Assembly (NCBI GenBank): GCA_903928915.1
Contig: CAIYSL010000068.1
Location: forward strand, 159,274 to 223,273
Source of the DNA: an uncultured Syntrophobacterales bacterium
Lineage (GTDB): Bacteria; Desulfobacterota; Syntrophia; Syntrophales; UBA5619
Reading direction: 5' to 3'
DNA length: 64,000 nt
Positions 1,548-29,630 of this stretch are shown piece by piece. Both the position numbers and the translations under genes were made by a program. Within the stretch, counting starts at the first letter, position 1; each line of letters begins with the position of its first letter. Below the pieces are notes generated by a model. It did not search any database. It was given only the letters and a program-made list of their open reading frames with translations, and was not told where the DNA came from.

Positions 1548-1563
1548 TGGCACAGCCATTGCT
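1548..1563 (+). promoter_or_regulatory. sigma54 (-24/-12) promoter of the flgF operon
   Basis: TGGCAC-AGCCA-TTGCT matches TGGCAC-N5-TTGCW, 30 nt upstream of flgF. AT-rich tract at ~1487-1526. Confidence 0.85.
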
Positions 1564-10450: not shown

Positions 10451-10699
10451 ATGCTGATCCTGACACGGAAGTTGGGAGAATCGATTCAGATCGGCGATGA
10501 CATCCGGGTTACCTTGCTGGATATCAAGGGCAAGCAGATTCGAATCGGGATCGAGGCGCCGCGGGAAGTGATGGTTCATCGGGAAGAGGTCTACCGGATG
10601 ATCCAGGAGCAGAATCTGCAGGCTGCGCACTTTGCGCTGGCCGTTGCGGAGACGGAGAATCTGGCGGGCGTCTGGGACAGATTGAGCGGGAATCAGTGA
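10451..10699 (+). CDS. csrA: Carbon storage regulator CsrA
   Basis: [18 protein letters not shown]...[18 protein letters not shown] with the C-terminal extension typical of FliW-partnered CsrA. Confidence 0.97.
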
Positions 10700-10709
10700 G
10701 GCGAACGGT

Positions 10710-11180
10710 ATGAAGTTCCAAACGAAGCGCTTCGGCGCTATCGACGTGGATGAAACCCGGGTGATCAGGATGAAAGGGGGTATCTTAGGGTTCGAGCATC
10801 TGCTGACCTATACCCTCCTGATCCAGGACCCGCACAATCCGTTGTGGTGGCTGCAGTCTCTGGAGGACGACGGCCTCGCCTTCGTCGTGACGGATCCGCT
10901 GGTCATCCGGGCAGACTATCGTCCGGAGATCCCCAGGGCGGCCCTGGCCTTTCTGGATATCATGCAGGAGGGAGCGCTGTCCCTGCTGGCCATCGTGACG
11001 ATCCGCTCCCAACCCTTTCGGGTGACGGCAAACCTGAGGGCGCCGCTGGTCATCAATGCGGAAACCCGTGTCGGGGGGCAGGTCGTTCTCGATGACGAAA
11101 CGTACCAGGTCCGTCAGGAGATCATCCCGCCCACCGCAGCGGAACGGGGGCTGGCCGCGGTATGCGTTGCCGGCCCGTAG
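10710..11180 (+). CDS. fliW: Flagellar assembly factor FliW
   Basis: TKRFG, GILGFE, WLQSL...LAFVVTDP, TANLRAPLVIN...GGQVVL; adjacent to csrA. Confidence 0.95.
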   Translation: MKFQTKRFGAIDVDETRVIRMKGGILGFEHLLTYTLLIQDPHNPLWWLQSLEDDGLAFVVTDPLVIRADYRPEIPRAALAFLDIMQEGALSLLAIVTIRSQPFRVTANLRAPLVINAETRVGGQVVLDDETYQVRQEIIPPTAAERGLAAVCVAGP

Positions 11181-11957: not shown

Positions 11958-11973
11958 AGCAATCACTATGCCA
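11958..11973 (-). promoter_or_regulatory. sigma54 promoter of the 11420-11872 gene
   Basis: Minus strand TGGCAT-AGTGA-TTGCT (GG-N10-GC); AT-rich tract 12045-12088 upstream. Confidence 0.75.
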
Positions 11974-12310
11974 TGTCCGATTTTCCGTCCCCTATCCTGA
12001 GCGGCGATACACGCTCCCGCAAGGAAGGGCGTTGCCGGACAGGCTTTATTTATATAACATACAGATAATATTATTAAAATATGAAAAGAGTTCTTCGGCG
12101 GCTGAAAGCCGGTCCGCTGACGGCAGGGATTATGCGGCCCTGACCCCGTTGGTGGCCGGAATAATTTTCCGTTTTCGCGGAAAAAACCTCCCGCCGTTCA
12201 GGGGGGAGCCGTCCTGCGGGGCTATGCCCCCCCGCAGGATCGGTGAGAAAAATAGAATAAAAAAACGGTCGTCCGCTGAAATCGGCACGAGAAATGCGAA
12301 GAATACGTGC

Positions 12311-13528
12311 ATGATGGCTATCCACTTGTCGATAATCGCACTGACCGTTATCGTGATTGCCATAATCTGGTATGCGCTCTCCCGGGATCAGGGTCTCGAC
12401 AGGAATCAGAAGACCGGCTCTGCCGCCGTCAAGGAGCTCAGGGCGAGCGGCCCGTCGTGCCGGGAACAGCGTCCTCCGGAAGGCGTCGCCAACCCCGGCG
12501 ACAGCCCACCCCTCCGTGCCGCTCCTGTCCCGGACGGCGGCGAGGAAAATCCCCATGATTCCCAGGCCTATCTCAGGGATGGGATAGCCCTGATTTTTGC
12601 GGACCCGCCCCTTCCGGCTGAACAGGGGGGAGCGCTGCTCAAGATTGAGGGAGTTCGCGACGATGTCCGTCAGCACGTGCTGTCCCACATCGCCTCGTTG
12701 AAGAATGTCGATTACGTGCACCGGCTGCAGCGGATGATGGGTGATCCCAAGACGAGCATGAAGGATCTTTCCGTAATGATCACCAGTAACCCCCTCCTGT
12801 CCGCCAAGATTCTCCAGGTTGCCAACTCCGCCTATTACGGCATGGAGCAAAAGCTCAATTCCATCAGTCACGCCATCATGATCATCGGGATGGTGAATAT
12901 CAAGGCGATCATCTACCACGAAGGGGTCCTCCAGGTACTGAACGAACAAAATTTCCGCAACAATCCGACGATGCAGACCGTCTGGCAGCACGCCAATTAT
13001 GCGTCTATCTGCTCATCGTACCTGCAGTATCTGTTCGGCGACCTCAACATGGGTACCCTGTTTACCCTGGGGCTGCTCCACGACATCGGCAAATTCATCC
13101 TGATGAAGCTGCCGCCCCTTTCCGCAGGCGACGGCGAACCGCCGCCCGTCTACTCCTCCGACTGGACACTCGCGGAGGAGGAGCGGATTTACGGTATCAA
13201 TCATGCCCTCGTGGGCCAGCTGGCGGTGCGACACTGGGGACTTTCCCCGCTGATTGTGCAGACGATCGCCCTGCATCATGCCCCCCCATCGCTCAGTGCC
13301 GATGCCGTGGGCGTGGACCGGGAAGTGCAGTCCTACCTGCTGGTGCTGTTTCTTGCCGATCAGGCAGCCCGCCTTTTTGCCGGCGGCGGTGCCGCAGTCC
13401 GGGTGGACCGGCTGCATCCCTCCTACCACGCCTTGATAGACCGGCATACCCTGTCTCAGCTGATCGCGGATAAATCCCTGATCGGGCAGCTCCGCGAGGC
13501 CGAGGCGATTACCAGCGTTTACGCATAG
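12311..13528 (+). CDS. Membrane-anchored HDOD domain protein
   Basis: N-terminal hydrophobic helix; NPLLSAKILQVANSAYYG, SISHAIMIIG, GLLHDIGK, EERIYGINHALVG, HWGLS motifs of HDOD. Confidence 0.9.
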   Translation: MMAIHLSIIALTVIVIAIIWYALSRDQGLDRNQKTGSAAVKELRASGPSCREQRPPEGVANPGDSPPLRAAPVPDGGEENPHDSQAYLRDGIALIFADPPLPAEQGGALLKIEGVRDDVRQHVLSHIASLKNVDYVHRLQRMMGDPKTSMKDLSVMITSNPLLSAKILQVANSAYYGMEQKLNSISHAIMIIGMVNIKAIIYHEGVLQVLNEQNFRNNPTMQTVWQHANYASICSSYLQYLFGDLNMGTLFTLGLLHDIGKFILMKLPPLSAGDGEPPPVYSSDWTLAEEERIYGINHALVGQLAVRHWGLSPLIVQTIALHHAPPSLSADAVGVDREVQSYLLVLFLADQAARLFAGGGAAVRVDRLHPSYHALIDRHTLSQLIADKSLIGQLREAEAITSVYA

Positions 13529-13644
13529 GATTGATCCGTTCCGCCGCTGTCTCGCCCCGATCTTCCCTTTCCTCCGGCGCATATCTGGTGCACCCTCCTG
13601 CCGGAGCATGATCGGTACCGCGTGCCGTCCCTGAAGCGCAGGGG

Positions 13645-13660
13645 TGGTATGCATATTGCT
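13645..13660 (+). promoter_or_regulatory. sigma54 promoter of the glycosylation island
   Basis: TGGTAT-GCATA-TTGCT (GG-N10-GC) ~90 nt upstream of the merR-pseB start. Confidence 0.7.
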
Positions 13661-13752
13661 TATTCAAAGTTAATCTGAAAGTTCACTTTTCCCTTCAGCA
13701 GAGGGTATTCGCTCGTTGCCGGGTGTCCGCGACACAGAGAGTCGGAAACGAT

Positions 13753-15123
13753 ATGGGTGAGAGAATGGAACTACGAATCAACGAGATCAGCCAGAAATTG
13801 CAGGTGCCCAAGTCGACCATCAGATTCTGGGAGGCGCAGTTTGCGGAGCTGATACGGCCGCACATGACCAAGGGGGGACAGAGACGGTATTCCGTTAAGG
13901 ATGTGGAGTACCTGCGGATGATTAAGGATCACGTGCACCAGCACAATCGGAGCATTCAGGAGACGAAGCGTATCCTCCGGCAGGGAAAGACGGGCGACGG
14001 GGCCATCGACTGGAGCCAGCAGACCATCCTGCTGACCGGGGGAACGGGCTCATTTGGCAAGCATTTCTGTGAGGTGATGATCCGGAAATACCACCCGAAG
14101 GCGGTGCGGGTGTACAGCCGTGATGAATTGAAACAGCACGAGATGCGTCAAAAGTATGGCGAAGAATCCCTGCGGTATTTCATCGGCGATATCCGCGATG
14201 CCGACCGTCTGCGCAGGTCGATGGAGGGGGCAGATATCGTGGTACATGCCGCTGCCCTCAAGCAGGTTCCCGCCTGCGAATACAACCCCCTCGAGGCGGT
14301 GAAGACCAACATCCACGGCGCCCAGAACGTGATCGATGCGGCGATCGACACGGGTGTCAAGAAGGTAATCGCCCTCAGCACGGACAAAGCGGTCAATCCC
14401 GTCAATCTCTATGGCGCTACCAAACTGTGCGCAGAAAAGATCTTCATTCAGGGAAATTCCTACCGCGGGGGGCGGGGGACCCGTTTCAGCTGCGTACGGT
14501 ACGGGAACGTCATCGGCAGTCGGGGAAGCGTCATTCCGCTGTTCAAGGACCAGAAGAAGACCGGCAGGGTCACCATTACCGACATGCATATGACCCGGTT
14601 CTGGCTGACCCTCGATCAGGCCGTCGACCTGGTCGTCAATGCCCTCGAGCACATGCAGGGGGGGGAGATATTCGTCCCCAAGATTCCCAGCATGAAGATT
14701 GTCGATCTGGCCAAGGCGATCGCCCCGGAATGCGAGATCGAAGTCATCGGCATCCGGCCGGGGGAGAAACTCCACGAGGTGCTGTTTACCGAGGAGGACG
14801 GAAGAAACGCCCTGCTGTACAACGGGATGTTCGTGATCATGCCGAGCTACAGCTGGTGGGAGCGGGAGAACTACAAGACCGGCCGCCGCCTGTCCGGGAA
14901 TTACACCTACGCCAGCAACACCAACGATGAATGGTTGAGCGTCGAAGACCTGAGACGGATCATCGCGGACGGTTCGCCCGGGGCGAGCGATCCGGCGTCT
15001 CTGCTGGCTGCCACCATTCACCGGCTGAACGAACGGGTGATCATCAGCATGCTCGACTCGGAGGAGGTCATCCCGGAGCCCGGGGAGCGGTCCCTCGGCA
15101 GGGCCGGGGGTGCCGACCGGTGA
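13753..15123 (+). CDS. pseB: MerR-type HTH domain fused to UDP-GlcNAc 4,6-dehydratase (inverting) PseB
   Basis: N-terminus LRINEISQKLQVPKSTIRFWEAQF...GGQRRYSVKDV (MerR HTH), then TGGTGSFG, HAAALKQVP, STDKA, YGATK, RYGNV, MTRFW, GIRPGEKLHE. Alternative starts 13723 (GTG) and 13765. Confidence 0.92.
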   Translation: MGERMELRINEISQKLQVPKSTIRFWEAQFAELIRPHMTKGGQRRYSVKDVEYLRMIKDHVHQHNRSIQETKRILRQGKTGDGAIDWSQQTILLTGGTGSFGKHFCEVMIRKYHPKAVRVYSRDELKQHEMRQKYGEESLRYFIGDIRDADRLRRSMEGADIVVHAAALKQVPACEYNPLEAVKTNIHGAQNVIDAAIDTGVKKVIALSTDKAVNPVNLYGATKLCAEKIFIQGNSYRGGRGTRFSCVRYGNVIGSRGSVIPLFKDQKKTGRVTITDMHMTRFWLTLDQAVDLVVNALEHMQGGEIFVPKIPSMKIVDLAKAIAPECEIEVIGIRPGEKLHEVLFTEEDGRNALLYNGMFVIMPSYSWWERENYKTGRRLSGNYTYASNTNDEWLSVEDLRRIIADGSPGASDPASLLAATIHRLNERVIISMLDSEEVIPEPGERSLGRAGGADR

Positions 15124-15153: not shown

Positions 15154-16347
15154 ATGAACGACGCTGTTGAACAGGAGACCGTGACCGCACGGCATTCCGC
15201 CGCCGACCGCGCCTGCATACCCTACGGCAGGCAGACGATCGAGGAGGATGATATCCGCGCCGTGGACGAGGTACTGCGCTCGGACTGGCTGACGACGGGG
15301 CCCCGGATAGCGGAATTTGAAGCGGCCGTTTCCCGGTTCGTGGGGGCGACCTGCGGGGTCGCGGTCAACAGCGGCACGGCCGGCCTGCACAGCGCCATGA
15401 ACGCCCTCGGCATCGGGCCGGGCGACGAAGTGATCGTGCCGCCGCTCACCTTCGCGGCGACCGCCAATTCCGTTGTCTACACGGGAGCCCGGCCGGTATT
15501 CGCGGATGTGGAGCCCGACACCCTGCTGATCGACCCTGCCCGGGCGGAAGCGAAGATCACCCCGAGAACCCGGGCCATCATCGGCGTGGACTATGCCGGA
15601 CACCCCTGCGATTGGGATGCCCTGCGGGATATTGCAGCCCGTCGCCGCCTCGCCCTGGTCGCCGACGCCTGTCATGCGCTGGGGGCAAAATACCGGGGAA
15701 GACCGGTCGGCGCCCTTGCCGACCTCACGGTGTTCAGCTTTCATCCGGTCAAGCACATCACTACCGGGGAGGGGGGCATGGTCGTCACCGAAGACCCGGC
15801 CCTGGCGGCGAGCATGCGTACATTCCGCAACCATGGGATGACCGCCGATCATCGGCAGCGGAACGACCAGGGGTCCTGGTATTACGAGATCCGTTCCCTC
15901 GGATACAACTATCGCATCACCGACTTCCAGTGCGCCCTGGGCATCAGCCAGTTGCGCAGACTGCCGGCGTGGCTCGCGCGCCGCCGGGAGCTTGCCGCAA
16001 GCTACGCCGCGGCCCTGGCCGATGTCCCCTGGCTGCGGCCCCTGTCCCTGCGGCCGGAGGTGGTGCACGCCTACCATCTGTATGTCGTCGAACTCACCCC
16101 CGCCGCCCGCCCCCTGAGCCGCGCGCAGCTGTTTGGCCTGCTGCGGGACGCCGGGATCGGCGTCAATGTCCATTACATCCCAGTGCACCTCCACCCCTTC
16201 TATCGGGAGCGGTTCGGCACCGGCCCTGGTCTCTGTCCGGTGGCGGAGGCGGCCTACGAGCGGATCCTCAGCCTCCCGCTGTACGCCGGTATGAAGGACT
16301 CCGAGCAGGGGGCGGTGATCGCGGCCCTGAAGGGGGCGCGGCGATGA
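15154..16347 (+). CDS. pseC: UDP-4-keto-6-deoxy-sugar aminotransferase PseC (DegT/DnrJ family)
   Basis: IPYGRQTIEEDDI...LRSDWLTTGP, SFHPVKHITTGEGG, LGYNYRITDFQCALG, VNVHYIPVH. Confidence 0.92.
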   Translation: MNDAVEQETVTARHSAADRACIPYGRQTIEEDDIRAVDEVLRSDWLTTGPRIAEFEAAVSRFVGATCGVAVNSGTAGLHSAMNALGIGPGDEVIVPPLTFAATANSVVYTGARPVFADVEPDTLLIDPARAEAKITPRTRAIIGVDYAGHPCDWDALRDIAARRRLALVADACHALGAKYRGRPVGALADLTVFSFHPVKHITTGEGGMVVTEDPALAASMRTFRNHGMTADHRQRNDQGSWYYEIRSLGYNYRITDFQCALGISQLRRLPAWLARRRELAASYAAALADVPWLRPLSLRPEVVHAYHLYVVELTPAARPLSRAQLFGLLRDAGIGVNVHYIPVHLHPFYRERFGTGPGLCPVAEAAYERILSLPLYAGMKDSEQGAVIAALKGARR

Positions 16348-17249: not shown

Positions 17250-19340
17250 GTGACGATGATACTGGCGATCCTGCAGGCGCGCGTCTCTTCCACGAGACTC
17301 GCCGGTAAGGTGTTGAAACCCCTCCAGGGCAAGCCGATGCTCCAGCATCAGATCGAGCGGGTCCTCCGTTCGCGCAGGATCGACCGGCTCGTCGTGGCGA
17401 CCAGCGCGGATAGGTCCGATGACGGTCTCGAAGCGCTGTGCGGGGCGATCAGCCTGCCCTGCCATCGGGGCGATCTGGACGATGTGCTCGACCGTACCTA
17501 CCAGGCCGCGCTGCCCTTCAACCCGCAGCACATCGTGCGGTTGACCGGCGATTGTCCGCTCCTGGACCCGGCGGTCGTGGACCGGGTGATCGAATTCTAC
17601 CTGGAGGGTAACTACGATTACGCCACGAACAGTCTGGAGGAGACCTTTCCCGACGGGCTCGATGTGGAGGTCTTCTCTTTTTCCGCCCTGCGGAGGGCAT
17701 GGGCGACCGCACGGCTCCCCTCGGAACGGGAGCATGTCACCCCCTTCATCCGCAACCATCCCGAGTTGTTTCGTATCGGCAGTCTCCGCAACGATCGGGA
17801 TCTCTCCGTCCACCGCTGGACCGTCGACGAGCCCCGTGACTTCGATTTCGTATCGCTGATCTACCGGGAATTGTATCCCGGGAAGCACGATTTCGCGACC
17901 GCGGATATCCTGGCGTATCTCGAGCGGAATCCCGAGGCCATGGCGATCAATCGGGGGATCGGAAGGAACGAAGGGTACGCAAAGTCTCTGGCGGAGGACC
18001 GGAGGGCAACCGCGGTGCGCAGCCGGAACATCGAAAAATCCTTCGCCATGCAGCAGCATGCCAAGGAGCGCATACCCGGGCTGAGTCAGCTCCTGTCCAA
18101 GCGGCCCGACCTGTTTTCCTACGGCCTCTGGCCGGGGTATTTCAGCGCCGCACGGGGGGCCGAGGTCTGGGACCTGGACGGCAACCGGTACGTAGATATG
18201 AGCATTGGCGGCGTGGGGGCCAATGTCCTGGGGTATGCGGACCCCGACGTGGATTCCGCGGTGAAGGAGGCGATAGACCGGGGAACCAGCTGTTCGCTGA
18301 ACTGCCCCGAGGAGGTGGAGCTGGCGGACCTGCTGTGCGAATTACACCCCTGGGCCCGGAAGGTCCGCTTTGCCCGCACCGGCGGTGAATCGATGTCCGT
18401 GGCCGTGCGCATCGCCCGGGCCTGCACCGGCCGGGACAAGGTTGCCTTCTGCGGGTATCACGGCTGGCACGACTGGTACCTGGCGGCGAACCTGGGAACG
18501 CAAAACGCCCTGGGGGAGCATCTGATTTCCGGGCTGGACCCGGCTGGCGTCCCCCTGGGGCTTGCCGGCACATCCCTTCCCTTCCGGTACAACCGCAGCG
18601 ACGAACTCGCCGCGATACTCTGCGACAACCCCGGGGAGATCGCGGCGGTCGTCATGGAGCCGATCCGCAATCAGCAGCCGGAGCCGGGGTTTTTCGCCAC
18701 CGTCAGAAAACTGGCGCAGGAGCATGGCGCCGTGCTGATCGTCGACGAAATATCCGCGGGGTTTCGGCTGAACAGCGGCGGGGCGCACCTTTCCCTGGGG
18801 CTGGAGCCGGATGTTGCGGTCTTTTCGAAGGCCCTGGGCAACGGATATCCCATCGCCGCCGTCATCGGCAAGGCCGAGGTGATGGACGCCGCGCAGAAGA
18901 CCTTCATCAGCTCCACGGCCTGGACCGAACGGGTAGGGCCGGTCGCGGCGATTGCGACGATCCGCAAACACCGCCGGTGCAACGTTGCCGACCATCTCGT
19001 GCGGATCGGCCAGCTCGTGCAGGAGTGCTGGCGAGCCGCGTCGCAAACCCATGGCCTGCCGATCTCCCTGGGCGGCATTCCGCCGCTCGGCTCTTTTGCC
19101 TTTACGGGAGACAATGCGCTCCTCCTGAAGACGCTGTTCATCCAGGGGATGCTGGAGCGGGGGTTTCTGGCGACCACAGGGTTCTATGCCATGTATGCCC
19201 ACCGGGAGGCCCATGTCCGGGCCTATGCGGCCGCGGCCGACGCGGCATTCGGCTCGATACGCGCCGCCCTCGAGACGGGGAGGCCCGAGGAGTGCCTGCG
19301 GGGAGAGCAGGCGGTGGCCGGGTTCAAGAGGCTGAACTGA
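17250..19340 (+). CDS. SpsF-type cytidylyltransferase fused to a class III (GSA-aminomutase-like) PLP aminotransferase
   Basis: N-terminal ILQARVSSTRLAGKVL, RLTGDCPLLDP, REHVTPFI; C-terminal GYHGWHDW, DEISAGFR, FSKALGNGYP (PLP lysine). Confidence 0.9.
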   Translation: MTMILAILQARVSSTRLAGKVLKPLQGKPMLQHQIERVLRSRRIDRLVVATSADRSDDGLEALCGAISLPCHRGDLDDVLDRTYQAALPFNPQHIVRLTGDCPLLDPAVVDRVIEFYLEGNYDYATNSLEETFPDGLDVEVFSFSALRRAWATARLPSEREHVTPFIRNHPELFRIGSLRNDRDLSVHRWTVDEPRDFDFVSLIYRELYPGKHDFATADILAYLERNPEAMAINRGIGRNEGYAKSLAEDRRATAVRSRNIEKSFAMQQHAKERIPGLSQLLSKRPDLFSYGLWPGYFSAARGAEVWDLDGNRYVDMSIGGVGANVLGYADPDVDSAVKEAIDRGTSCSLNCPEEVELADLLCELHPWARKVRFARTGGESMSVAVRIARACTGRDKVAFCGYHGWHDWYLAANLGTQNALGEHLISGLDPAGVPLGLAGTSLPFRYNRSDELAAILCDNPGEIAAVVMEPIRNQQPEPGFFATVRKLAQEHGAVLIVDEISAGFRLNSGGAHLSLGLEPDVAVFSKALGNGYPIAAVIGKAEVMDAAQKTFISSTAWTERVGPVAAIATIRKHRRCNVADHLVRIGQLVQECWRAASQTHGLPISLGGIPPLGSFAFTGDNALLLKTLFIQGMLERGFLATTGFYAMYAHREAHVRAYAAAADAAFGSIRAALETGRPEECLRGEQAVAGFKRLN

Positions 19341-20371: not shown

Positions 20372-20481
20372 ATGACAGGCGCCGCGGCATTGCCGGAGCG
20401 CACGGTGGCAGGTGCCGGGGCTGCGCCGCGGTGCGGATAAAAAGTTGAATAATATATCATATGTACGACATAAGAGGGGAT

Positions 20482-21186
20482 ATGTCCGCTGACGCAACGG
20501 GAAGCAACAGGGATTACTGGAAGAATTTTTGGAACACCCATGCCGCCACCGACCGCATGTACGGCCGGGATACCTGGTCGTTCCGGGAATTCTATCTGCT
20601 GATCACTGATGTGGTTATGGCACTGGATTTGAATAAGGATGACGTTCTCCTGGACGCCGGCGGCGGCACGGGCGCCATGGCAATCGCGCTTGCGCCGTTC
20701 GTAAAGCGGATAACCCTGTTCGACTTCGGCGACGACATAGTGGCCAAGGCCCGTGAAGAAACGAGTTTTTTCAGGAACATCGATGTCCTGAGCGATGATG
20801 TCCGCGTTTTCGGGTCGCTGGCCGGGGCAGGGGCGTATTCCAAAGTACTGGTCGGTTCGGTCTTACAGTACCTGGATGATATGGATGAGGTCCGGCAGGT
20901 GCTTGCGCAGACCTTTCGCGTGCTCGCTAGCGGGGGAAGGGCGCTGTACACGCACAACCCGGACCTCGCGAAAAAGGCCGCTCACATCGAGTCCTACGGC
21001 CGCCTGTCCTGGGAGAAGGAGAGGGTGGACCGGGCACTGGAGATGGAAGAGCGCCGCCTGTGGGTCGACAAGGAGGAGTTTTACCGGATCTCCCGCGAGG
21101 TCGGGTTTGGCAAATCCGTCGAGTGCGCGATCAACGGGAATCTCTGGCAGTCGACCCACATGTTCGACTGGCTGGTGGAAAAATGA
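20482..21186 (+). CDS. Class I SAM-dependent methyltransferase
   Basis: LLDAGGGTG motif I, SVLQYL, RVLASGG; GAGGGG RBS before ATG 20482 (alternative 20461). Confidence 0.85.
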   Translation: MSADATGSNRDYWKNFWNTHAATDRMYGRDTWSFREFYLLITDVVMALDLNKDDVLLDAGGGTGAMAIALAPFVKRITLFDFGDDIVAKAREETSFFRNIDVLSDDVRVFGSLAGAGAYSKVLVGSVLQYLDDMDEVRQVLAQTFRVLASGGRALYTHNPDLAKKAAHIESYGRLSWEKERVDRALEMEERRLWVDKEEFYRISREVGFGKSVECAINGNLWQSTHMFDWLVEK

Positions 21187-21198
21187 CGGAGCAGTCGC

Positions 21199-21690
21199 AT
21201 GACCGAGCGGAAACCGGCGGGCACGGATGAAGCCCGGATGACGCTGAAGGAATTTCAGGAGCTGTTCAGTTCGCTGACGAATTTTCGCGCGAATCGGTTT
21301 CATCCCCTCGTGTGGATAAACGGTGAACCGGAGATCGGCGAAAATGTCTATGTGGGCGGGATGTCGGAGATCAACGCCAAGGGGGCCCGGGTGGTGATCA
21401 AGGAGAACTGCGACATCGCCTCGTTCGTGGCGATCAATTGCGCCGACTCGCACCGCAAATGTCTCGGAATGTCGCCGCGGATCGACGCGCAGGATATCCT
21501 CATCGAGGAAAACGTGTTCATCGGCTCCCATTGCCTGGTCAAAGGGGGAGCCCATATCGGCCACCATTCGGTGGTGGCGGCGGGAACGATCGTGGATGCC
21601 GGGGCGATCCCGCCCTACTCGCTCGTGTACGGCAATCCCATGAAGGTCAAGAAGGGATACTATCTGTCGCGAATGCCGGGCAGCCGCTAA
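21199..21690 (+). CDS. Left-handed beta-helix (hexapeptide repeat) acyltransferase
   Basis: IGENVYVG, IEENVFIGSH, IGHHSVVAAG, VYGNP repeats. Confidence 0.88.
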   Translation: MTERKPAGTDEARMTLKEFQELFSSLTNFRANRFHPLVWINGEPEIGENVYVGGMSEINAKGARVVIKENCDIASFVAINCADSHRKCLGMSPRIDAQDILIEENVFIGSHCLVKGGAHIGHHSVVAAGTIVDAGAIPPYSLVYGNPMKVKKGYYLSRMPGSR

Positions 21691-21729
21691 GCGGCCGGCA
21701 CCGCAAACCGCAGGGCGTGAGGAGTTTCG

Positions 21730-23037
21730 ATGGTTCAGAACGACATTGTGCTGGTGTATCCGATTCCGACGCTCGACTCGCCGGTCAACCTGGTGCCCCT
21801 GTCGATTCTGTTCCCGGGCGCGCTGTTCGAGCGGCAGGGGATGAGGGTGGCGTATTTCGACGAACGGTATGATTCCGAAGAACTGCTCGCCCAACTGATC
21901 CGGGAATCGCGGGAGATCGGCGTCAGCGCCTTCACGGGACCGCAGGCGGGCCGTGCGGCCGACATCCTGATCAAGGCCAAGCAGATCAACCCGTCGATCA
22001 TCACCGGCGTGGGAGGGCATCACGCCCGGATCCTGCCCGAGCAGGTGCTGGCGGAGCCCTTCGTGGACAAGGTGTGGACCGAGCCGTCGTACGGCGAGGA
22101 TCTGTTCCCCTATAACGAACGCACCAAGAAATTTTTCGCCCGCTCCGACATGCAGTACTTCGCCTCCCGCGGCTGCCCGCACACCTGCTCCTTCTGCTGC
22201 CTCAGCTCCCCGTGGCAGCCGAAGGCAATAGGGGATCTGGAGCGGGAACTGACGATCATCCACGGGGATGTCGGGTTTCACGAGATCTCCTTTTCCGATC
22301 CGAATATTGCCTTCGGGAGGAGCGAGCGCGAGCGGCTCGAACGGATCCGGGGGATCGGACGCATCATGCGGAAGCTGAAGGTGCGCTGGGACGGCAACAT
22401 GCGCTCTCCCTATCTCTCCCCGGCCATGGTGGAGGCGTTGGCCGAATCCAACTGCTATTCCCTGGAGATCGGCTGCGAGTCGGGGAACGACCAGTTCTTG
22501 CGGAAGGTGATCAGGAAGGGGCACGGCGTGGAGGCGATCAGGAAGGCGGCCCGTGCGGTCAAGGGCTCCGGCATCTCGGTGATGTACAGCTTCATCGCCC
22601 ATATGCCGCGGGAAACGAAGGCCATGCTGATGGATACCTTCGACCTGATCGACTGGATTGTGGGTGTCGACCGGGATGCGCGGGTGTCAATCTTCACCTA
22701 TGCCCCCTTTCCCGGGAGCAGGATGTACCGCGACGCCGTGGAGGGGGCGGCGGGCTATCCCCCCTTCGTCCCGCCGACGACGATGAAAGGGTGGGCCTCC
22801 CTGCCGTTCATGAAGAGCCCGCTGTACTGGATTGCCGGTCTCTGCTTCCGGAAGGACAACACCCGGAAGAATTTTCGCGGCGACGACTGGAAGCTGATCG
22901 AGCCGTATTTGGCGCTCGCGGAGAAGAAGTGGAAAGAACGCGATTTTGACGACTTTCCCATCCGGGACGTGGAGGCGCTCATCCTCCGGCAGATGGTGAA
23001 GAACAACACGATACGAAGCGCCGGTCGAGCGGCGTGA
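21730..23037 (+). CDS. B12-binding radical SAM protein
   Basis: B12-binding-like N-domain (IGVSAFT...VGGHHA...P), SRGCPHTCSFC, IGCESG, YAPFPGS. Confidence 0.88.
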   Translation: MVQNDIVLVYPIPTLDSPVNLVPLSILFPGALFERQGMRVAYFDERYDSEELLAQLIRESREIGVSAFTGPQAGRAADILIKAKQINPSIITGVGGHHARILPEQVLAEPFVDKVWTEPSYGEDLFPYNERTKKFFARSDMQYFASRGCPHTCSFCCLSSPWQPKAIGDLERELTIIHGDVGFHEISFSDPNIAFGRSERERLERIRGIGRIMRKLKVRWDGNMRSPYLSPAMVEALAESNCYSLEIGCESGNDQFLRKVIRKGHGVEAIRKAARAVKGSGISVMYSFIAHMPRETKAMLMDTFDLIDWIVGVDRDARVSIFTYAPFPGSRMYRDAVEGAAGYPPFVPPTTMKGWASLPFMKSPLYWIAGLCFRKDNTRKNFRGDDWKLIEPYLALAEKKWKERDFDDFPIRDVEALILRQMVKNNTIRSAGRAA

Positions 23038-23053
23038 GCGACGAAAGGGGGCA

Positions 23054-23824
23054 GTGATGATTCTCACATCCCACCAGCCGGTATACCTTCCCTGGCTGGG
23101 GCTGTTCCACAAGATAGCCCTGGCCGATGCCTATTGCTTTTTCGACATCGCCCAGTTCCTGCTGAAGGACTGGAACAACCGGAATCAGATCAAGACGGCC
23201 AACGGCGCCCTGTGGCTGACGGTTCCGGTGTACAAGAAGGGGTACGTGGACAAGCAGATCAAGGATATCGAAATCGACAACGAGTATGACTGGCGGAAGA
23301 AGCACTGGAACACCCTCATGCTGTACTACAAAAAGACGCCCTATTTCAGCCAGTATGCCGATTTCTTCGCGGATACCTATAAACGGGACTGGCAATACCT
23401 GGTCGATCTGAACGAACACATGCTGCGGTACTTTCTTCAGGTGCTGGGGATCGAGGTCCGCATCTTCAAGGCCTCGGATTACCGCTTCGAGGGGAGAAAG
23501 TCCGACCAGGTGCTCGACATGTGCAAGAAGCTGCACGCCGATTGTTTCATCTTCGGCGCCCAGGGGAGAAATTACGCGGTGCCGGAGGACTTTGCCCAGA
23601 ACGCAATCGCGATCCATTTCCAGGACTACGTCCATCCCACCTACAACCAGCGCTGGGGCGATTTCGTCCCCTATCTCTCGGTCATCGACCTGCTGTTCAA
23701 CGAAGGGGCGGCCCGGGCGCGCGATATCATCATGATGAATAACATCGGCAAAGCCGAGCTGGGGCAGCTCTGCGCCGAGCCAGGCGCGGGAGTACAGGCG
23801 GCAGGGGTATCCCATGCGAACTGA
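23054..23824 (+). CDS. WbqC-family protein (putative aminoacyl/glycyl transferase)
   Basis: HQPVYLPWLGLFHKI, WNNRNQIKT, WLTVPV, YKKTPYF, HPTYNQ, LSVIDLLFNEG. Confidence 0.92.
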   Translation: MMILTSHQPVYLPWLGLFHKIALADAYCFFDIAQFLLKDWNNRNQIKTANGALWLTVPVYKKGYVDKQIKDIEIDNEYDWRKKHWNTLMLYYKKTPYFSQYADFFADTYKRDWQYLVDLNEHMLRYFLQVLGIEVRIFKASDYRFEGRKSDQVLDMCKKLHADCFIFGAQGRNYAVPEDFAQNAIAIHFQDYVHPTYNQRWGDFVPYLSVIDLLFNEGAARARDIIMMNNIGKAELGQLCAEPGAGVQAAGVSHAN

Positions 23825-25496
23825 ACCGAATGTGCTGTTCGTCAACCTACCCACCGTTCCCTTCGACGAGATGGTCAAAGGCCTCCGGGAGGAGCAGTAC
23901 GTTTCCCAGGTGCTGGCGCTGCCGATGGGGATCCTGTACCTTTCGGCATACCTCCGGCAGCACAACCCCGTGCGGGGCGAAATCGGCATCCTGGATTACA
24001 TCCTCGCCATGGAGGGACTGTCCGCGTACCGGAGCGTCGAAGAGTTCATCCGCGACATCGCCGTCAAGTCGGTGCACTTCCGGCCGGACATCCTGGCCTT
24101 CTCGCTGATCTTTTCCACGTCGCATACGGTGTTCGCCATCACCCTCGGCATCCTGAAATCCCTCTGGCCCGATGCCTGTGTCGTCGTGGGGGGGACGCAC
24201 GCCACCGCGGCCGCCCTCCCGATCCTGCAGAACGATCAGGTCGACTACGTGATCCGGGGAGAGGGGGAGATCGCCTTCTCCGATTTCGTGACCGGGTATG
24301 CACGGGGGGAGCGCATCGCGATCAAAGGGGTATACTCCCGGCACGATGCCCCCGCGGCGGGAGTGCTGGAAACGACCGATGCCCCCGCCGACCTCGACCT
24401 CCTCCCCTACCCGGACTGGCAGCTCGTGGACATGCCGGCCTATTCGGTGAAAAAGGGGAGCCAGCGGGAGTTCGGCGATCGGGAACCGCGCAAGGTCGGT
24501 ACGATCGTCACGACCAGGGGATGTCCGAACAAATGCACCTTCTGCGCCGCCCACCTCGTTCACGGCAGGAAGGTGCGGTACCGGTCGGTGGCGAACGTCG
24601 TGGACGAGGTGCGGGAGCTCCATCGAACCTTCGGGATAACCTTGTTCATCCCCGAGGACGACATGTTCACCGTCCCCAAGAAGCGGTTCATCGCCCTGAT
24701 GAAGGCCCTCCGGGACCTGAACATCCCCGGGTTCGAGATGCAGAATCAGGACGGCCTTTCCGTCAACACCCTGGACAACGACGTCATCGACGCGATGCTG
24801 GGCGCGGGGGTCCGCCTGTTCAATCTCGCCGTGGAGTCCGGGTCCGAGGACGTGCAGACCCGCCTGATCAAGAAGAACGTCCGGCTGCACCGCGTCCGGG
24901 AGATCATCGACTACATCCGGTCCCGGAACAGCGAGGCGATCGTCCGGTGCTATTTCATCCTGGGGTTCTTCGGCGAGACGAAACAGCAGATGCGGACGAC
25001 GATCGACTTTGCCAAGGGGACCGGGGCGGACTGGTGCCTGTTCAGCATCGCCACCCCGCTGATCGGCACGGAGATGCATCGCCAGATGCTCGCGGCGGGG
25101 CTGATCGAGGACAACATCGATTACTGGGTGCGGGCGTCCTTCGGCCAGCGCTGCTTCGATACCCCCGAGATCTCGGCGGCGGAGCTGACCGAACTTTCCT
25201 ATGGGGCGAACCTCGAGGTGAATTTCTTCGGCAACGTCAACATGGCGAACGGGAATTACTCCAAGGCCCTGGGGATCTTCAGCGATATCGTCCGGCTGTA
25301 CCCCTTCCACATCGTCGCGTGGTACTGCATCATGGAATGCCACGCCGGGCTGCGGGATCGGCAAAAGGCAGCGGAGGTCCGGCGGAAACTGGATGAGCTC
25401 GTCCGCAGGGATGCGCGCTCGGCGGAGATGTTTCGGAAATACGGCCGTCTGATGCCCAGCATCGCCCGGTCGGAGCGGGAGGTATCGGCAGCGTGA
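23814..25496 (+). CDS. B12-binding radical SAM protein with C-terminal TPR-like helices
   Basis: PMGILYLSAYL, VVGGTHAT, VIRGEGE, TTRGCPNKCTFC, AVESGS, FILGFFGET, TPLIGT. Confidence 0.92.
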   Translation: MRTEPNVLFVNLPTVPFDEMVKGLREEQYVSQVLALPMGILYLSAYLRQHNPVRGEIGILDYILAMEGLSAYRSVEEFIRDIAVKSVHFRPDILAFSLIFSTSHTVFAITLGILKSLWPDACVVVGGTHATAAALPILQNDQVDYVIRGEGEIAFSDFVTGYARGERIAIKGVYSRHDAPAAGVLETTDAPADLDLLPYPDWQLVDMPAYSVKKGSQREFGDREPRKVGTIVTTRGCPNKCTFCAAHLVHGRKVRYRSVANVVDEVRELHRTFGITLFIPEDDMFTVPKKRFIALMKALRDLNIPGFEMQNQDGLSVNTLDNDVIDAMLGAGVRLFNLAVESGSEDVQTRLIKKNVRLHRVREIIDYIRSRNSEAIVRCYFILGFFGETKQQMRTTIDFAKGTGADWCLFSIATPLIGTEMHRQMLAAGLIEDNIDYWVRASFGQRCFDTPEISAAELTELSYGANLEVNFFGNVNMANGNYSKALGIFSDIVRLYPFHIVAWYCIMECHAGLRDRQKAAEVRRKLDELVRRDARSAEMFRKYGRLMPSIARSEREVSAA

Positions 25497-26572
25497 AATT
25501 CGAAATCGCACAGAGACCGATCGGGGGGGACGCCCCCGTCTTCATCGTCGCCGAGCTCTCCTGCAACCATCAGCAGGACTTCTCCCTGGCGGTGAAGACG
25601 ATCCGGGCGATGAAGGAGGCCGGGGCCGATGCGGTAAAGCTCTCGACCGACTGGAACGACGGCGGGATAACCATCGATTGCGACAACCGGTACTTCCGTA
25701 TCGGCGAGGGGACGATCTGGGACGGGAAGACCCTGTTCGAGCTGTACGAGGAGGCCTTTACCCCCTGGGAATGGCAACCGAAGCTGAAGTCCCTGATCGA
25801 GGAGCTCGGGATGGTCTGTTTTTCCACCGCCACCGACACCACGGCCGTCGACTTCCTGGAGGGTATCGACATCCCCTGTTATAAGATCGCCTCCTTCGAG
25901 ATCAATGATCTGCCGTTGATCGAGTACGCGGCTGCGAAGGGAAAGCCGATGATCATTTCCACCGGCGTGGCGACACTGTCCGATATCGAAGCGGCGGTGC
26001 ACGCCTGCCGGAAGGCGGGCAACCACCGCATCGCGCTGCTCAAGGCGACCTCGGCCTATCCGACCCCCTTCCGGGAGATCAACCTGCGGACCATCCCCCA
26101 CCTGCGGAGCCTGTGCGGCACCGTCGTGGGGCTGTCCGACCACAGCCTGGGCACGTCGGTGGCGGTCGCGGCGGTCGCCCTGGGGGCGAAGGTGGTGGAG
26201 AAGCATTTCATCCTGGAGAGGGCGCTGGGGGGGCCCGACGCCGCCTTTTCGATGGAGCCCCAGGAGTTCCGCCAGATGGTGCAATCGATCCGGGAGGTGG
26301 AGCAGGCCCTGGGCGCGGTGTCCTACGAGATACCGGAAGGGGTCCGCAGGAATCGGAGGTTCATGAAATCCCTGTTTGCCATCCGGGACATCGCGGCGGG
26401 GGAGGAATTCACCGGGGAAAACATCCGTTCTATCCGGCCCGGGGATGGACTTCCGCCCGGATTTTTTCCCACGCTGGTGGGGAAGAAGGCGAACCGCCCC
26501 ATCCGCAGGGGGACCCCCTTGACGTGGGAACTCCTCCTGGGGGCGTCAACGCCAGAAAGGTGCGAAGGTTGA
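25493..26572 (+). CDS. pseI: Pseudaminic acid synthase PseI-like (NeuB family) with atypical active-site motifs
   Basis: IVAELSCNH, TPWEWQPKL, KIASFE, IISTG, GLSDH, VEKHF, GPDAAFSMEP, C-terminal SAF/AFP-like domain (SIRPGDGLPP). Confidence 0.88.
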   Translation: MKFEIAQRPIGGDAPVFIVAELSCNHQQDFSLAVKTIRAMKEAGADAVKLSTDWNDGGITIDCDNRYFRIGEGTIWDGKTLFELYEEAFTPWEWQPKLKSLIEELGMVCFSTATDTTAVDFLEGIDIPCYKIASFEINDLPLIEYAAAKGKPMIISTGVATLSDIEAAVHACRKAGNHRIALLKATSAYPTPFREINLRTIPHLRSLCGTVVGLSDHSLGTSVAVAAVALGAKVVEKHFILERALGGPDAAFSMEPQEFRQMVQSIREVEQALGAVSYEIPEGVRRNRRFMKSLFAIRDIAAGEEFTGENIRSIRPGDGLPPGFFPTLVGKKANRPIRRGTPLTWELLLGASTPERCEG

Positions 26573-26642
26573 TGCGGGCGCATCGTTTTCTCCGGCACGC
26601 CCATCGGGAGGTGCCGACGATGACAGGCACAAGACGATCCCT

Positions 26643-27959
26643 ATGACGCGACACGCACCGCTTCGACATTCCGGACTCGTGGAGCGCAATTACCTGCGCA
26701 ACCGGACTATCGTGTCTTCCGATATCGGCCCGCTGCTGGAGGATGTCGCCGCGACGGCCGGGCATGAACTCGTGGTCCACCGGTACCCGAGCGGGTCGGA
26801 TATCGGCACCTGGATCGTCCCCCCCCGGTGGGATGTGAAAGAGGCCTGGCTGAAAGGGCCCGACGGCGCTCTCATCGCCTCGTACGCGGACCATCCGCTG
26901 TTCTCGATACCCTACACGCAGCCCTTTAGCGGCAGGGTCGATCACGAAACGCTGAAACGGCACGTCCTGCTTCACCCCACGCAGGACGACGCCTTCTTCT
27001 ACGAGCACCGGTTCGCCTACGACTATCGCAAGCGCTTGACGGACTGGGCGATCACCCTGCCGCGCACCCTGTTCAACCGGCTCAGGGCGGGCGAGTATAC
27101 GGTGCATCTCGACTACGACATCGCGGACGGGGAGATGCTCGTCGGGGAGCTCTGCCTTCCCGGCGCGACCGGGGAGTGTATCGCGCTGTTGACCGACTAC
27201 TGCCATCCGGGACAGGTGAACGATTCCTTTACCGGGATTCTGGCCATGCTGGACGTGTTCGAACGGCTGAAGGTAATGGAAAACCGGCGGTATACGTACC
27301 GGCTGTTCTTCTTTCCCGAGACGATCGGCTCCTGCGTGCTGCTCCACGCCCGCCCCGACTATGCGGCAGACACCCGTCTGGCCATCTTCAGCGAATTCGT
27401 CGGCTGGGGGCGAAACTGGAAGGTCCTTGCCGGCGGGGACGCAAACGGCCTGAGCGGGAAGCTCGGCCGTCAGATCGCGCTCGCGTACCGGGATGTGCGG
27501 TGCGACGGCCTGGCGGACGGGTTCGGCAATGATGAGGCCGTGTTCGACTTCGCGGGGATACCGTCCCTGTCCGTGCAGATGAGCGAATGCGACGAATACC
27601 ACAGCTCGCTCGATCGGCCGGAGCTGATCGAACCGGCAAATGTCGAGCGGGCCGCCGACATCGTCTTTAGCCTCTGCCGGATGATGGAGGAGAACCGGGT
27701 GCTCCGCCTCGGTCAGCGCGTCCCCGTGTACTTGACGCGGTACGGCCTCTATTCCGATTCCGTGTACCAGTCCGCGGATTTCGAGAAGAACCGGACGATT
27801 CTGTACGGACTGCGCGACGGCCGTTCGCTGCTGGACATCGCCGCGGCGGCCGGTATCGAATTCGCGTACGTGCGAAGCTTCGCAGCGACGCTCGCGGAGC
27901 GGGGATTGCTGGAAACCCCGCTCCCGGACGACGACAGGAGGAAATGCCATGGAAATTGA
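26643..27959 (+). CDS. DUF4910 (M28 aminopeptidase-like) protein with C-terminal winged helix
   Basis: YPSG...WIVPPRW, YCHPGQVNDSFTG, YTYRLFFFPETIGS, EYHSSLD, DGRSLLDIA. Confidence 0.85.
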   Translation: MTRHAPLRHSGLVERNYLRNRTIVSSDIGPLLEDVAATAGHELVVHRYPSGSDIGTWIVPPRWDVKEAWLKGPDGALIASYADHPLFSIPYTQPFSGRVDHETLKRHVLLHPTQDDAFFYEHRFAYDYRKRLTDWAITLPRTLFNRLRAGEYTVHLDYDIADGEMLVGELCLPGATGECIALLTDYCHPGQVNDSFTGILAMLDVFERLKVMENRRYTYRLFFFPETIGSCVLLHARPDYAADTRLAIFSEFVGWGRNWKVLAGGDANGLSGKLGRQIALAYRDVRCDGLADGFGNDEAVFDFAGIPSLSVQMSECDEYHSSLDRPELIEPANVERAADIVFSLCRMMEENRVLRLGQRVPVYLTRYGLYSDSVYQSADFEKNRTILYGLRDGRSLLDIAAAAGIEFAYVRSFAATLAERGLLETPLPDDDRRKCHGN

Positions 27960-28878
27960 CGAACAGGCCGGTTTCGTCGGGGGAACGGTCGTATCCCGGT
28001 CGTCGCTCGAGGAGGTACGGAAGTTCTACAATACGGTCGGGGCGGATTGGGGGAACCGGTACCAGGCCCCCGACGAGAAGGCACCCGATCCCGCGGTCCT
28101 GCGGCTTCGCGTCGTGATCAAACTGATCGAGCGGTACGGGTGCGACAACATCTTCGATGCCGGCTGCGGGGACGCGCCGGTCGTTGCGGAGCTGCTGCGC
28201 CGGGGCAAGACGGTCCGCGGGGTCGATTTCTCCGAGGTGCTGGTGAACCGCGGCAAATCGCTTCTCGAAAAGCAGGGGTTTGACCCCCGCCTGTGCGAAG
28301 TCGGGGATGTAACGAACCTTGCCGAACCGGACGGCGCCCATGACACCGTCCTGTGCCTCGGCGTCCTGCCGCACATCGACCGTATGGACCGGGCAGTCGG
28401 GGAGCTGGTGCGCATCACCCGACCGGGGGGGATCCTGATCCTGTCGTTTCGCAACGACCTGTTCGACCTGTTCACCTTCAACCGCTTCACGGTGGAATTC
28501 TTCGCCGACCGGCTTCTGCCGGCAGTTCCCTTCACCCCGGAGGAGCGGGATCGCGCCCTACGCGGGATCGCCGGCCTGCTGGCCTTTCCCGACCGGCCCG
28601 GGGAGAGCCCCGACAGCCCCCATCGGGAATTCTATCGGCTGACCCGGATCAACCACAACCCCCTGACTATCGCCGCGGATCTCGAGCCATTCGGCATGAC
28701 GCACCTGGTGAACGGCTACTACAAGTTTCATCCCCTCCCGCCGCTCCTCCAGGAGCAATTCCCCAATTTTTCCGAGATCGGCGCACGGATGGATGAAACC
28801 CTGAGTTTTTCCTGGCTGGGGATGTTCATGTGCTCGACGTTCATCGCGGTATTCCGGAAGAACGGAGGCTGCCGATGA
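27949..28878 (+). CDS. Class I SAM-dependent methyltransferase
   Basis: FDAGCG, GVDFS, LCLGVLPHI, RITRPGG. Confidence 0.88.
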   Translation: MEIDEQAGFVGGTVVSRSSLEEVRKFYNTVGADWGNRYQAPDEKAPDPAVLRLRVVIKLIERYGCDNIFDAGCGDAPVVAELLRRGKTVRGVDFSEVLVNRGKSLLEKQGFDPRLCEVGDVTNLAEPDGAHDTVLCLGVLPHIDRMDRAVGELVRITRPGGILILSFRNDLFDLFTFNRFTVEFFADRLLPAVPFTPEERDRALRGIAGLLAFPDRPGESPDSPHREFYRLTRINHNPLTIAADLEPFGMTHLVNGYYKFHPLPPLLQEQFPNFSEIGARMDETLSFSWLGMFMCSTFIAVFRKNGGCR

Positions 28879-29630
28879 GCGGGGGAGACCGGGCCGCGCC
28901 CCGCGGAAGGGGCGCGCGGCGCCCAGCGGGGGAGGGGCGCAGAGGCGGGGGGGACACCGTCCTGATCGTGGCGGCCCATCCCGACGACGAGGTCCTCGGG
29001 TGCGGCGGGACCGTGGCCCGGCTGGCAGCGGAGGGCCACGATCCGTACATCGCGATCCTCGGCGAGGGGGTCACCTCGCGGTACGCGAAGCGCCGGCAGG
29101 CGGACCGGGCGATGGTCGAGGCCCTGCGGCAGCAATGCCGTGCGGCGGCAAGCACGATCGGGGCGCGGGACCTGTTCCTGTACGATCTGCCCGACAACCG
29201 GTTCGATACGCTCCCGCTGCTCGAGGTGGTGAAGATCGTGGAAGCCCTGATCGCCCGGCTGCGGCCGCGGGTCCTATATACGCACCACCCCGGCGACCTG
29301 AACGTGGATCATTGCGTCACCTTCCGTGCCGCCTTGACCGCCGCCCGGCCCGTTCCGGGCTGCGCGGTCCGGGAACTGTACACCTTCGAAACCCCGTCGT
29401 CGACGGAGTGGTCGTTTGGGGGAGGGCAACGGTTCAACCCCACGGTATTCGTCGATATCGGCGCTACGTTGCCGGCAAAGCTCGCCGCCCTTGCGCTGTA
29501 TGACGGCGAGGTGCGCCCCTTTCCCCACCCGCGGTCGAACGACGCGGTAACGGCGATCGCCCGCCGCTGGGGGAGCGTAGCAGGGGTCCACGCGGCGGAG
29601 GTGTTCGAACTGATCCGGAAGGTGTGCTGA
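28875..29630 (+). CDS. PIG-L/LmbE family deacetylase
   Basis: AAHPDDEVLGCGG and HHPGDLNVDH metal-binding motifs; FPHPRS; ATGA overlap with the upstream gene. Confidence 0.92.
   Translation: MSGGDRAAPRGRGARRPAGEGRRGGGDTVLIVAAHPDDEVLGCGGTVARLAAEGHDPYIAILGEGVTSRYAKRRQADRAMVEALRQQCRAAASTIGARDLFLYDLPDNRFDTLPLLEVVKIVEALIARLRPRVLYTHHPGDLNVDHCVTFRAALTAARPVPGCAVRELYTFETPSSTEWSFGGGQRFNPTVFVDIGATLPAKLAALALYDGEVRPFPHPRSNDAVTAIARRWGSVAGVHAAEVFELIRKVC

Follow-up and report, generated by a model that had tools for sequence, protein, structure and literature searches.

A MerR-type helix-turn-helix domain fused to the pseudaminic acid enzyme PseB, with a candidate operator at the promoter of the fused genes

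In the genome of an uncultured Syntrophobacterales bacterium (GCA_903928915.1), we analyzed a stretch of 64,000 nucleotides of contig CAIYSL010000068.1, referred to here as the window. Within a flagellar glycosylation island of this window, a single gene joins a MerR-type helix-turn-helix (HTH) domain to PseB, and tandem AAAGTT repeats stand just behind a sigma-54-type promoter ahead of it. The reading we lean towards, without great firmness, is that the encoded protein is a bifunctional enzyme and regulator, which would bind the AAGTT repeats at the promoter of its own gene and act as a repressor of the pse operon to which it belongs. An earlier note on this DNA had already proposed a trigger enzyme that autoregulates the island; what can be added in its favor is that the fusion is conserved, that it is the sole PseB of its genome, and that near single-copy repeats lie at the fused genes' own promoter, all of these being results of sequence comparison. 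The sigma-54-type promoter and the tandem AAAGTT repeats upstream of fused pseB are new here, and neither appeared in that note.

In the pathogens that have been studied, flagellar filaments do not assemble unless flagellin is glycosylated with pseudaminic acid. How cells adjust the supply of this sugar to flagellar gene expression is little understood, and this family would offer a simple circuit made of one protein and a defined candidate operator of 25-30 bp. We found no description of a MerR-PseB fusion in the literature, judged by titles and abstract openings, which agrees with the earlier note, whose author knew of no characterized example.

The plus strand carries a single uninterrupted frame from 13723 to the stop codon at 15121-15123, with three in-frame start candidates (GTG 13723, ATG 13753 and ATG 13765). 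Translation from ATG 13753 would give 456 amino acids (aa) and from ATG 13765 452 aa; residue numbers are counted here from ATG 13753. Since the homologues begin with M-x-Y/L-R-I behind a Shine-Dalgarno-like stretch, with an ATG at this point in 45 of 58 fused loci, ATG 13765 is the likely start codon. As had been noticed before, the MerR HTH continues in frame into PseB with no stop between the domains. Contigs of two sequencing runs, both from the same study and one possibly the source sample, span 13500-14443 and 13675-14319 with zero differences and zero indels, thus crossing the junction (13950-14030) without a stop or frameshift. Separately, a 208-base contig of a riverine metagenome from another study (run X4) matches the HTH part (13757-13964) with 5 differences and comes from a close relative.

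The same architecture is widespread. Pfam MerR_1 and Polysacc_synt_2 occur together in all 120 homologues listed (66-87% identical, 400-484 aa), and the source name, where one is given, is merely 'UDP-N-acetylglucosamine 4,6-dehydratase'. Because databases name the fusions as the enzyme alone, their regulatory half is invisible in annotation. We also scanned one genome per species with a pattern derived from the HTH. Of the 79 loci retained, 58 have a frame that runs on into PseB, and the other 21 are small stand-alone MerR-like genes from other phyla. Judged by record title, the 58 fused loci belong mostly to Desulfobacterota (Syntrophales, Desulfobacterales, Desulfobulbia/Desulfurivibrio and Desulfosudis), with a few loosely labelled metagenome-assembled genomes (MAGs) and one Zixibacteria MAG besides. 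Among the carriers are records titled Desulfosudis oleivorans (L148 and L171), a cultivable organism. A scan with the whole-protein alignment was dominated by ordinary PseB genes and gave 5 fusions among 80 loci. A search of representatives with the HTH alone showed few fusions; we drew no count from it, as clustering at 50% merges the family and many of the best matches are truncated fragments. Of 401 genomes sampled evenly across the phylum, 65 carry PseB at E <= 1e-90, and 10 of these 65 are fused, our own genome included. This genome has no second PseB above the cut-off, so the fusion is its only one.

At the N-terminus, Pfam MerR_1 matches aa 8-77 (E 9e-14, 51.8 bits against a cut-off of 21.6). 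The HTH domain of about 75 aa described earlier is therefore present, with a Pfam match of about 70 aa. AlphaFold2 models this winged helix confidently, with a predicted local distance difference test (pLDDT) score of ~87-97, and Foldseek matches it to DNA-bound MerR-type domains at template modelling (TM) scores of 0.65-0.79. The nearest solved folds, RacA, GlnR, TnrA, NmlR, CarH with 26-bp DNA, MtaN, CadR and SoxR, are all DNA-bound, and BldC follows lower in the list (rank 50). When solved chains are compared by sequence, MerR, GlnR, the CarA DNA-binding domain, CarH and 3WHP come closest (E 4e-4 to 4e-3). An alignment of 52 fusions shows little or no variation in the recognition helix and wing (P19, S21, T22, R24, W26, E27, F30, G41, R44, R45 and Y46), and by their sequence these residues are of the DNA-contact type.

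What follows the head differs from a classical MerR regulator. The HTH closes with a helix at aa 68-76, and a 10-residue linker of low confidence (pLDDT <50 at aa 78-82) leads directly to the Rossmann strand at aa 91-95. The classical coiled-coil dimerization helix is absent from both the alignment and the AlphaFold2 model, PseB takes the place of the C-terminal effector-binding region, and Pfam finds no B12-binding domain in the protein. Nor does the promoter have the classical MerR operator layout, a palindrome in a sigma-70 promoter with a 19-20 bp spacer; it has a sigma-54-type promoter with direct repeats instead. Thus, the fusion protein is a member of the PseB family and not a classical MerR regulator. 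Linker residues G78, I85 and W87 hardly vary, if at all, across the 52 fusions. Between aa 78 and 95, where the linker passes into PseB, the fusion consensus has no Met (a check that covered ATG starts alone), and therefore the first enzyme of the pathway is probably made as a fusion.

The enzyme body is a complete PseB. Pfam Polysacc_synt_2 covers aa 92-362 (E 2.7e-104), the PseB equivalog NCBIfam TIGR03589 scores 501 bits over aa 88-403 against a cut-off of 407.75, and the sister family FnlA scores 265 against a cut-off of 730. The same residues align end to end with Helicobacter pylori PseB (2GN4, E 5e-113), and TGGTGSFG, STDK and YGATK are all found in the alignment, which bears out the earlier statement that the catalytic motifs are intact. 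They fit the signature [ST]DKxnYx3K given in an excerpt of PMC8987622. The AlphaFold2 model of this body is mostly confident, with lower confidence in two loops (aa 172-175 and 213-239). The H. pylori enzyme forms a hexamer. A homodimer prediction with two full-length copies of the fusion scored 0.01 against a mark of 0.42, a result that counts neither for nor against oligomerization.

Behind the enzyme stands a C-terminal tail, put earlier at about 45 aa, that is in fact 53 aa long (404-456), because the alignment with 2GN4 stops at aa 403. Its helix (aa 414-437), predicted at low confidence, has H423, L425, N426 and E427 invariant or nearly so in the 52 aligned fusions. The tail is present in 19 of the 58 fusions found on genome contigs and in one unfused PseB (L029). 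The helix consensus LLSTIHxLNEKVILNMLNSEE matches no Pfam family.

Next, we turned to the region ahead of the gene. The sigma-54 consensus is TGGYAY-N5-TTGCW, and the window contains three sites of this type against 0.08 expected, each a short distance upstream of genes of the flagellar cluster. One of them precedes the fusion, where transcription would start near 13671; an equivalent element stands ahead of 45 of 59 fused genes, and the genome encodes RpoN. In most relatives, a sigma-28-type promoter of the form TAAAGTTT-N11/12-GCCGAWAA is stacked on this arrangement, such that the third repeat doubles as its -35 element; TAAAGTTT is the -35 element of the sigma-28 consensus in an excerpt of PMC7286023. 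With at least 11 of 16 positions matched, the sigma-28-type promoter is found in 51 of 59 fused loci compared with 7 of 96 unfused ones. FliA is encoded in the genome of the window, and the -10 element of such a promoter is absent upstream of the window's fusion gene. Elsewhere in the window, sigma-28-type matches occur at 59968-59994 (minus strand) and 42675-42701 (plus strand), with 1 and 3 mismatches; the better match stands ahead of the gene for a GH26/BACON protein of 929 aa (57027-59816, minus strand), not an obvious flagellar gene. A sigma-70 promoter and terminator scan found no promoter upstream of the fusion. Rfam gave nothing at gathering score on 13450-13850 (the best, M23, at 21.1 bits against 41.2). 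A reading of the region as an RNA leader was dropped, with no Rfam match and no conserved hairpin by eye, as the third repeat is direct in 22 of 39 sites and unable to pair with the second.

The repeats of the window begin 5 bases after the -12 element, and a single copy of AAAGTT-N6-AAAGTT (13666-13683) is found in the window, where 0.01 would be expected. In relatives the consensus is tAAAGTT-N6-AAAGTT-N6-AA(G/C)TTT, with center-to-center distances of 12 and 11 bp; the window has a short inverted half, ACTTT, in place of the third repeat. Repeats 1 and 2 agree at their core positions in 38-39 of 39 sites, and the center of repeat 3 is G in 22 and C in 12. Among 59 regions upstream of fused genes, 28 contain AAGTT-N7-AAGTT exactly and 13 with a single letter changed; among 96 regions upstream of unfused pseB, 21 of them from the same phylum, the corresponding counts are 0 and 3. 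Where a locus has both elements, the repeats lie 0-11 bases behind the sigma-54 element (31 of 34 loci). Unfused pseB genes of the same phylum often keep a sigma-54-type promoter, nearer to the start codon and without the repeats. The two most divergent fusions, L184 and L185, carry AAGTT/AACTT pentamers at 6-bp spacing right behind the -12 element, and because they keep the pentamer in a different arrangement, it looks from these sequences as if the pentamer rather than the whole block is the conserved unit.

A profile built from 39 sites was used to search 66 fused loci (618 kb), 96 unfused loci (942 kb) and 21 stand-alone MerR loci. It matched 54 of the 66 fused loci, a count in which the training sites match by construction and 8 loci, from another genome search, may duplicate others. 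These matches lie just upstream of the gene alone, except in L180, where an extra weak match (E 1.4) is found ~2.8 kb upstream. There was no match in the 942 kb of the 96 unfused pseB loci, and three weak ones were seen among the 21 stand-alone MerR loci. In the 4.34-Mb genome of the window, the fusion promoter was the one significant match (E 0.013, the next being E 34). The three-repeat pattern, with at most 1 mismatch, also occurs exactly once in each of five other fused genomes, ahead of the fusion, and a reversed-pattern control gave 0-2 matches per genome in the same five. When up to 2 mismatches are allowed, the two-repeat pattern shows no enrichment across the genome, with 69 sites compared with 150 for its reversed control, so that the exact site and the profile match alone stand out.

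We also asked how often the fusion has come and gone. A FastTree tree of the PseB domain has 137 rows, 54 fused (the window included) and 83 unfused; 18 loci whose high-scoring segment pair runs through a stop or has fewer than 280 residues were left out (L138, L181, L139, L067, L071, L076, L088, L101, L106, L110, L120, L121, L042, L044, L045, L046, L155 and L177). The tree requires 4 changes of fused state. Unfused L028 branches among 24 fused rows, in a clade with a support of 99, and has kept a sigma-54-like element, with the HTH and the repeats both gone. L034, unfused and on a long branch of uncertain place, keeps I-D-W of the linker and is without HTH and repeats. These two and L031, all unfused and from the same phylum, lie within or beside the fused clade, and since L034 and L031 keep the D-W motif of the linker, the sequences suggest repeated secondary loss of the HTH.

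Consequently, our model is as follows. The PseB body would catalyze the first step of CMP-pseudaminic acid (CMP-Pse) synthesis for flagellin glycosylation, and the MerR-type head would bind the repeats at the operon's own sigma-54 promoter. Several heads, held together by an enzyme that we take to be oligomeric here too, could line up along the same face of the DNA, in the manner of CarH and BldC. Once bound, they would block RNA polymerase, and the enzyme would repress its own pse operon. Repression is the simplest reading because the repeats span the sigma-54 start (about -5 to +19) and, in relatives, the -35 element of the sigma-28-type promoter.

Several observations weigh against this model. 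The motif is weak or divergent in 16 of the 54 fused rows of the tree, and the site of the window has two canonical repeats and no sigma-28 -10 element. The residues of the recognition helix, which is nearly invariant, show no co-variation with variants of the motif. Fused genes form nearly one clade, with the 4 state changes given above, so that motif and HTH could be co-inherited without interacting; the 4 independent contrasts between HTH and motif go in the same direction in 3.3 on average and never in the opposite one, and they are not significant (p 0.125-0.5). Finally, as the third repeat coincides with the -35 element of a sigma-28-type promoter, and this promoter is itself enriched at fused loci, part of the motif is promoter and not necessarily operator.

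This last point leads to an alternative that we consider unlikely, in which the AAGTT block is promoter architecture (sigma-28 -35-like or UP-like) or the site of another factor, and the HTH has some other role, for example in unspecific tethering to the nucleoid. AAAGTT does resemble TAAAGTTT, the sigma-28-type promoter is co-inherited with the fusion, and the phylogenetic contrasts are few. However, the sites of a general factor should recur, and six genomes have one significant site each; a single-copy motif speaks against a general flagellar factor, sigma-28 or IHF, since several sites per genome would be expected of those. Within the fused loci, the weak match in L180 is the only off-site one. 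Moreover, conservation is higher in repeats 1 and 2 than in the -35 repeat, the window keeps the first two without a sigma-28 promoter, and unspecific tethering would not require invariant HTH residues of the base-contact type. Tethering of the enzyme to the nucleoid, also raised in the earlier note, becomes less likely, as the motif is specific and single-copy.

A second alternative, which seems to us quite improbable, keeps the HTH on the AAGTT repeats and makes it an activator or promoter switch, for instance with the sigma-54 promoter turned off and sigma-28 polymerase recruited from -47 and -59. It would fit the 51 of 59 fused loci in which repeats 1 and 2 lie upstream of the -35 element of a sigma-28-type promoter, as well as the presence of FliA. 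The window speaks against it, retaining repeats 1 and 2 exactly without a sigma-28 -10 element, and so does their position over the presumed sigma-54 start, which is typical of a repressor. Only a slim chance can be given to a MerR-like domain that has lost DNA binding and works for the enzyme as a module for protein-protein contact or folding: the AlphaFold2 model leaves it uncertain where the HTH sits against the enzyme body (linker pLDDT <50), but recognition helix and wing show no variation in 52 fusions, each of the closest folds is DNA-bound, and the operator-like motif occurs together with the HTH. That two separate genes were taken for one through an assembly or frameshift error is refuted by the architecture shared by all 120 listed proteins from many sources, the 58 fused loci, the unchanged junction in contigs of two runs and the conserved linker sequence; on these sequences, the fusion is a real and selected family and no artefact.

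Returning to autorepression by the fusion, one may ask whether the enzyme reports its own state. That occupancy by UDP-GlcNAc (UDP-N-acetylglucosamine), NADP or CMP-Pse tunes DNA binding is speculative, and such gating is attractive because CMP-Pse reportedly inhibits PseB, to go by the title of a 2008 paper by McNally. We tentatively put forward, as a possibility that we ourselves hold to be doubtful, that the PseB oligomer is a nucleotide-sugar-sensing factor in which UDP-GlcNAc or CMP-Pse changes the presentation of the heads, which would then compete with sigma-54 and sigma-28 polymerase at AAGTT repeats mimicking a sigma-28 -35 element. If this were true, glycosyl-donor synthesis would be matched to flagellin production, the fusion would be the first known enzyme-regulator of a protein-glycosylation pathway, and coil-less MerR domains would have been put to use on direct repeats a third independent time, beside CarH and BldC.

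The features discussed here are collected in Table 1.

Table 1 Features of the pse locus and related promoter sites in the window
Feature	Coordinates	Strand	Basis
Sigma-54-type site, shortly upstream of the rod gene at 1594	1548-1563	+	
Sigma-54-type site, shortly upstream of a 150-aa open reading frame without a Pfam family (11872-11420, minus strand)	11958-11973	-	
Sigma-54-type (-24/-12) promoter, TGGTATGCATATTGCT	13645..13660	+	match to TGGYAY-N5-TTGCW
Candidate operator: AAAGTT 13666-13671 and AAAGTT 13678-13683 (12 bp apart), inverted half ACTTT 13685-13689	13666..13690	+	
MerR-HTH::PseB fusion gene	13765..15123 (alternative starts 13753, 13723)	+	frame, Pfam/NCBIfam domains, homologue starts
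MerR-type winged helix-turn-helix domain, no coiled-coil helix after it	13774..13983 (aa 8-77)	+	Pfam MerR_1, AlphaFold2, Foldseek
Linker with conserved G-N-x-D-x-G-K-I-D-W motif	13984..14013 (aa 78-87)	+	alignment of fusions, AlphaFold2
PseB domain, predicted UDP-GlcNAc inverting 4,6-dehydratase	14014..14961 (aa 88-403)	+	TIGR03589, 2GN4 match
C-terminal tail with conserved amphipathic helix aa 414-437 (14992-15063)	14962..15120 (aa 404-456)	+	beyond the 2GN4 alignment
PseC aminotransferase, next gene of the operon	15154..16347	+	Pfam DegT_DnrJ_EryC1, E 8e-132

As a rule, the pse operon begins with the fusion, and a PseC homologue follows it in 42 of the 58 fused loci. In the island, the upstream genes encode an FlgF/G-type rod protein, FlgI, FlgN, FlgK, FlgL, CsrA, FliW and an HDOD protein. 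Downstream come PseC, an aldo-keto reductase, a PseF-aminotransferase fusion, methyltransferases, two B12-binding radical S-adenosylmethionine (SAM) enzymes and WbqC, and further on PseI, a PIG-L deacetylase, a GNAT protein, a TPR-glycosyltransferase and a Maf protein. The names of PseC, PseF and PseI type are our reading of Pfam matches (DegT aminotransferase, cytidylyltransferase and NeuB-family synthase).

Some neighbors deserve a word of their own. The CsrA-FliW pair (10451-10699 and 10710-11180, plus strand), a module for post-transcriptional control of flagellin, lies between flgL and the HDOD gene, beside the glycosylation operon. The gene at 17250-19340 (plus strand) encodes 696 aa and fuses a PseF-type cytidylyltransferase (CTP_transf_3, aa 6-187) to a class-III aminotransferase (aa 300-598); relatives have it in one piece (for example L141 and L157) or in two (for example L132, L143 and L150). 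Region 20461-30353 (plus strand) encodes the two radical SAM enzymes and WbqC together with two methyltransferases, a DUF4910 protein, the PIG-L deacetylase and the GNAT protein, and because of these modifying enzymes we suggest that the sugar of the island is a heavily modified derivative of pseudaminic acid. The island is patchy, as this PseB is found in none of 14 other genomes of the same genus and the fusion in 3 of 16 other families of the same order, and it may have been acquired or often lost. GC content dips to 0.578 in 12001-14000, which holds the HDOD gene and the promoter, compared with 0.61-0.68 on either side.

How does this fusion relate to known systems? The enzyme part aligns with H. 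pylori PseB (2GN4) over aa 88-403, with the same catalytic signature and the TIGR03589 assignment, and its gene belongs to a pse operon with PseC, PseF, PseI and Maf. The H. pylori enzyme lacks the 77-aa MerR-type domain with its linker in front and the 53-aa tail behind. In GlnR and TnrA, DNA binding is governed by glutamine synthetase, an oligomeric and feedback-inhibited enzyme. Their MerR-type winged helices (4r4e, 4r22 and 7tea) are among the folds nearest to our head; glutamine synthetase, however, acts in trans, whereas the fusion has enzyme and HTH in one chain.

A DNA-binding domain and a pathway enzyme that regulates the genes of its own pathway are fused in the trigger enzymes BirA, PutA, NadR and RbkR (excerpt of PMC5397151). 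Our protein resembles them in having a DNA-binding-type domain and intact enzyme motifs in one chain, and differs from them in its DNA-binding fold and in its pathway, which supplies a nucleotide sugar for flagellin glycosylation. In its proposed role, it would add a nucleotide-sugar enzyme to this short list.

For its proposed mode of DNA binding, the fusion can be compared with proteins that read direct repeats. CarH binds as a tetramer to three or four repeats of 11 bp, the -35 element included, and in CarH, LitR and CarA (5C8D, 5C8E, 3WHP and 2JML) the operator is a tandem array of direct repeats, spaced by about one helical turn, over promoter elements (excerpt of PMC9304148); the candidate operator of the fused loci may be of a comparable kind. 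The sequence matches to the fusion head are weak (E 0.003-0.004), and the fold match is to 5c8e (TM 0.70). In contrast to CarH, the partner of our HTH is a short-chain dehydrogenase/reductase and not a B12-binding domain, and neither light nor B12 is involved; the CarH repeat reads nnnnTnnACAn, compared with AAGTT at 12 and 11 bp in the candidate operator, and the fusion promoters are of sigma-54 and sigma-28 types. BldC of Streptomyces (6AMK) is MerR-like, has no dimerization or effector domain and binds direct repeats as cooperative multimers (excerpt of PMC5859096). It shares the coil-less MerR-like domain, by a Foldseek match, with the fusion head, but is a 68-residue stand-alone protein with many targets, whereas our head is tethered to an enzyme and has one candidate site per genome. 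We propose that the fusion is a further case of a coil-free MerR-type head that reads direct repeats with the help of an oligomerizing module and that, by analogy, it probably resembles CarH and BldC in its mode of action.

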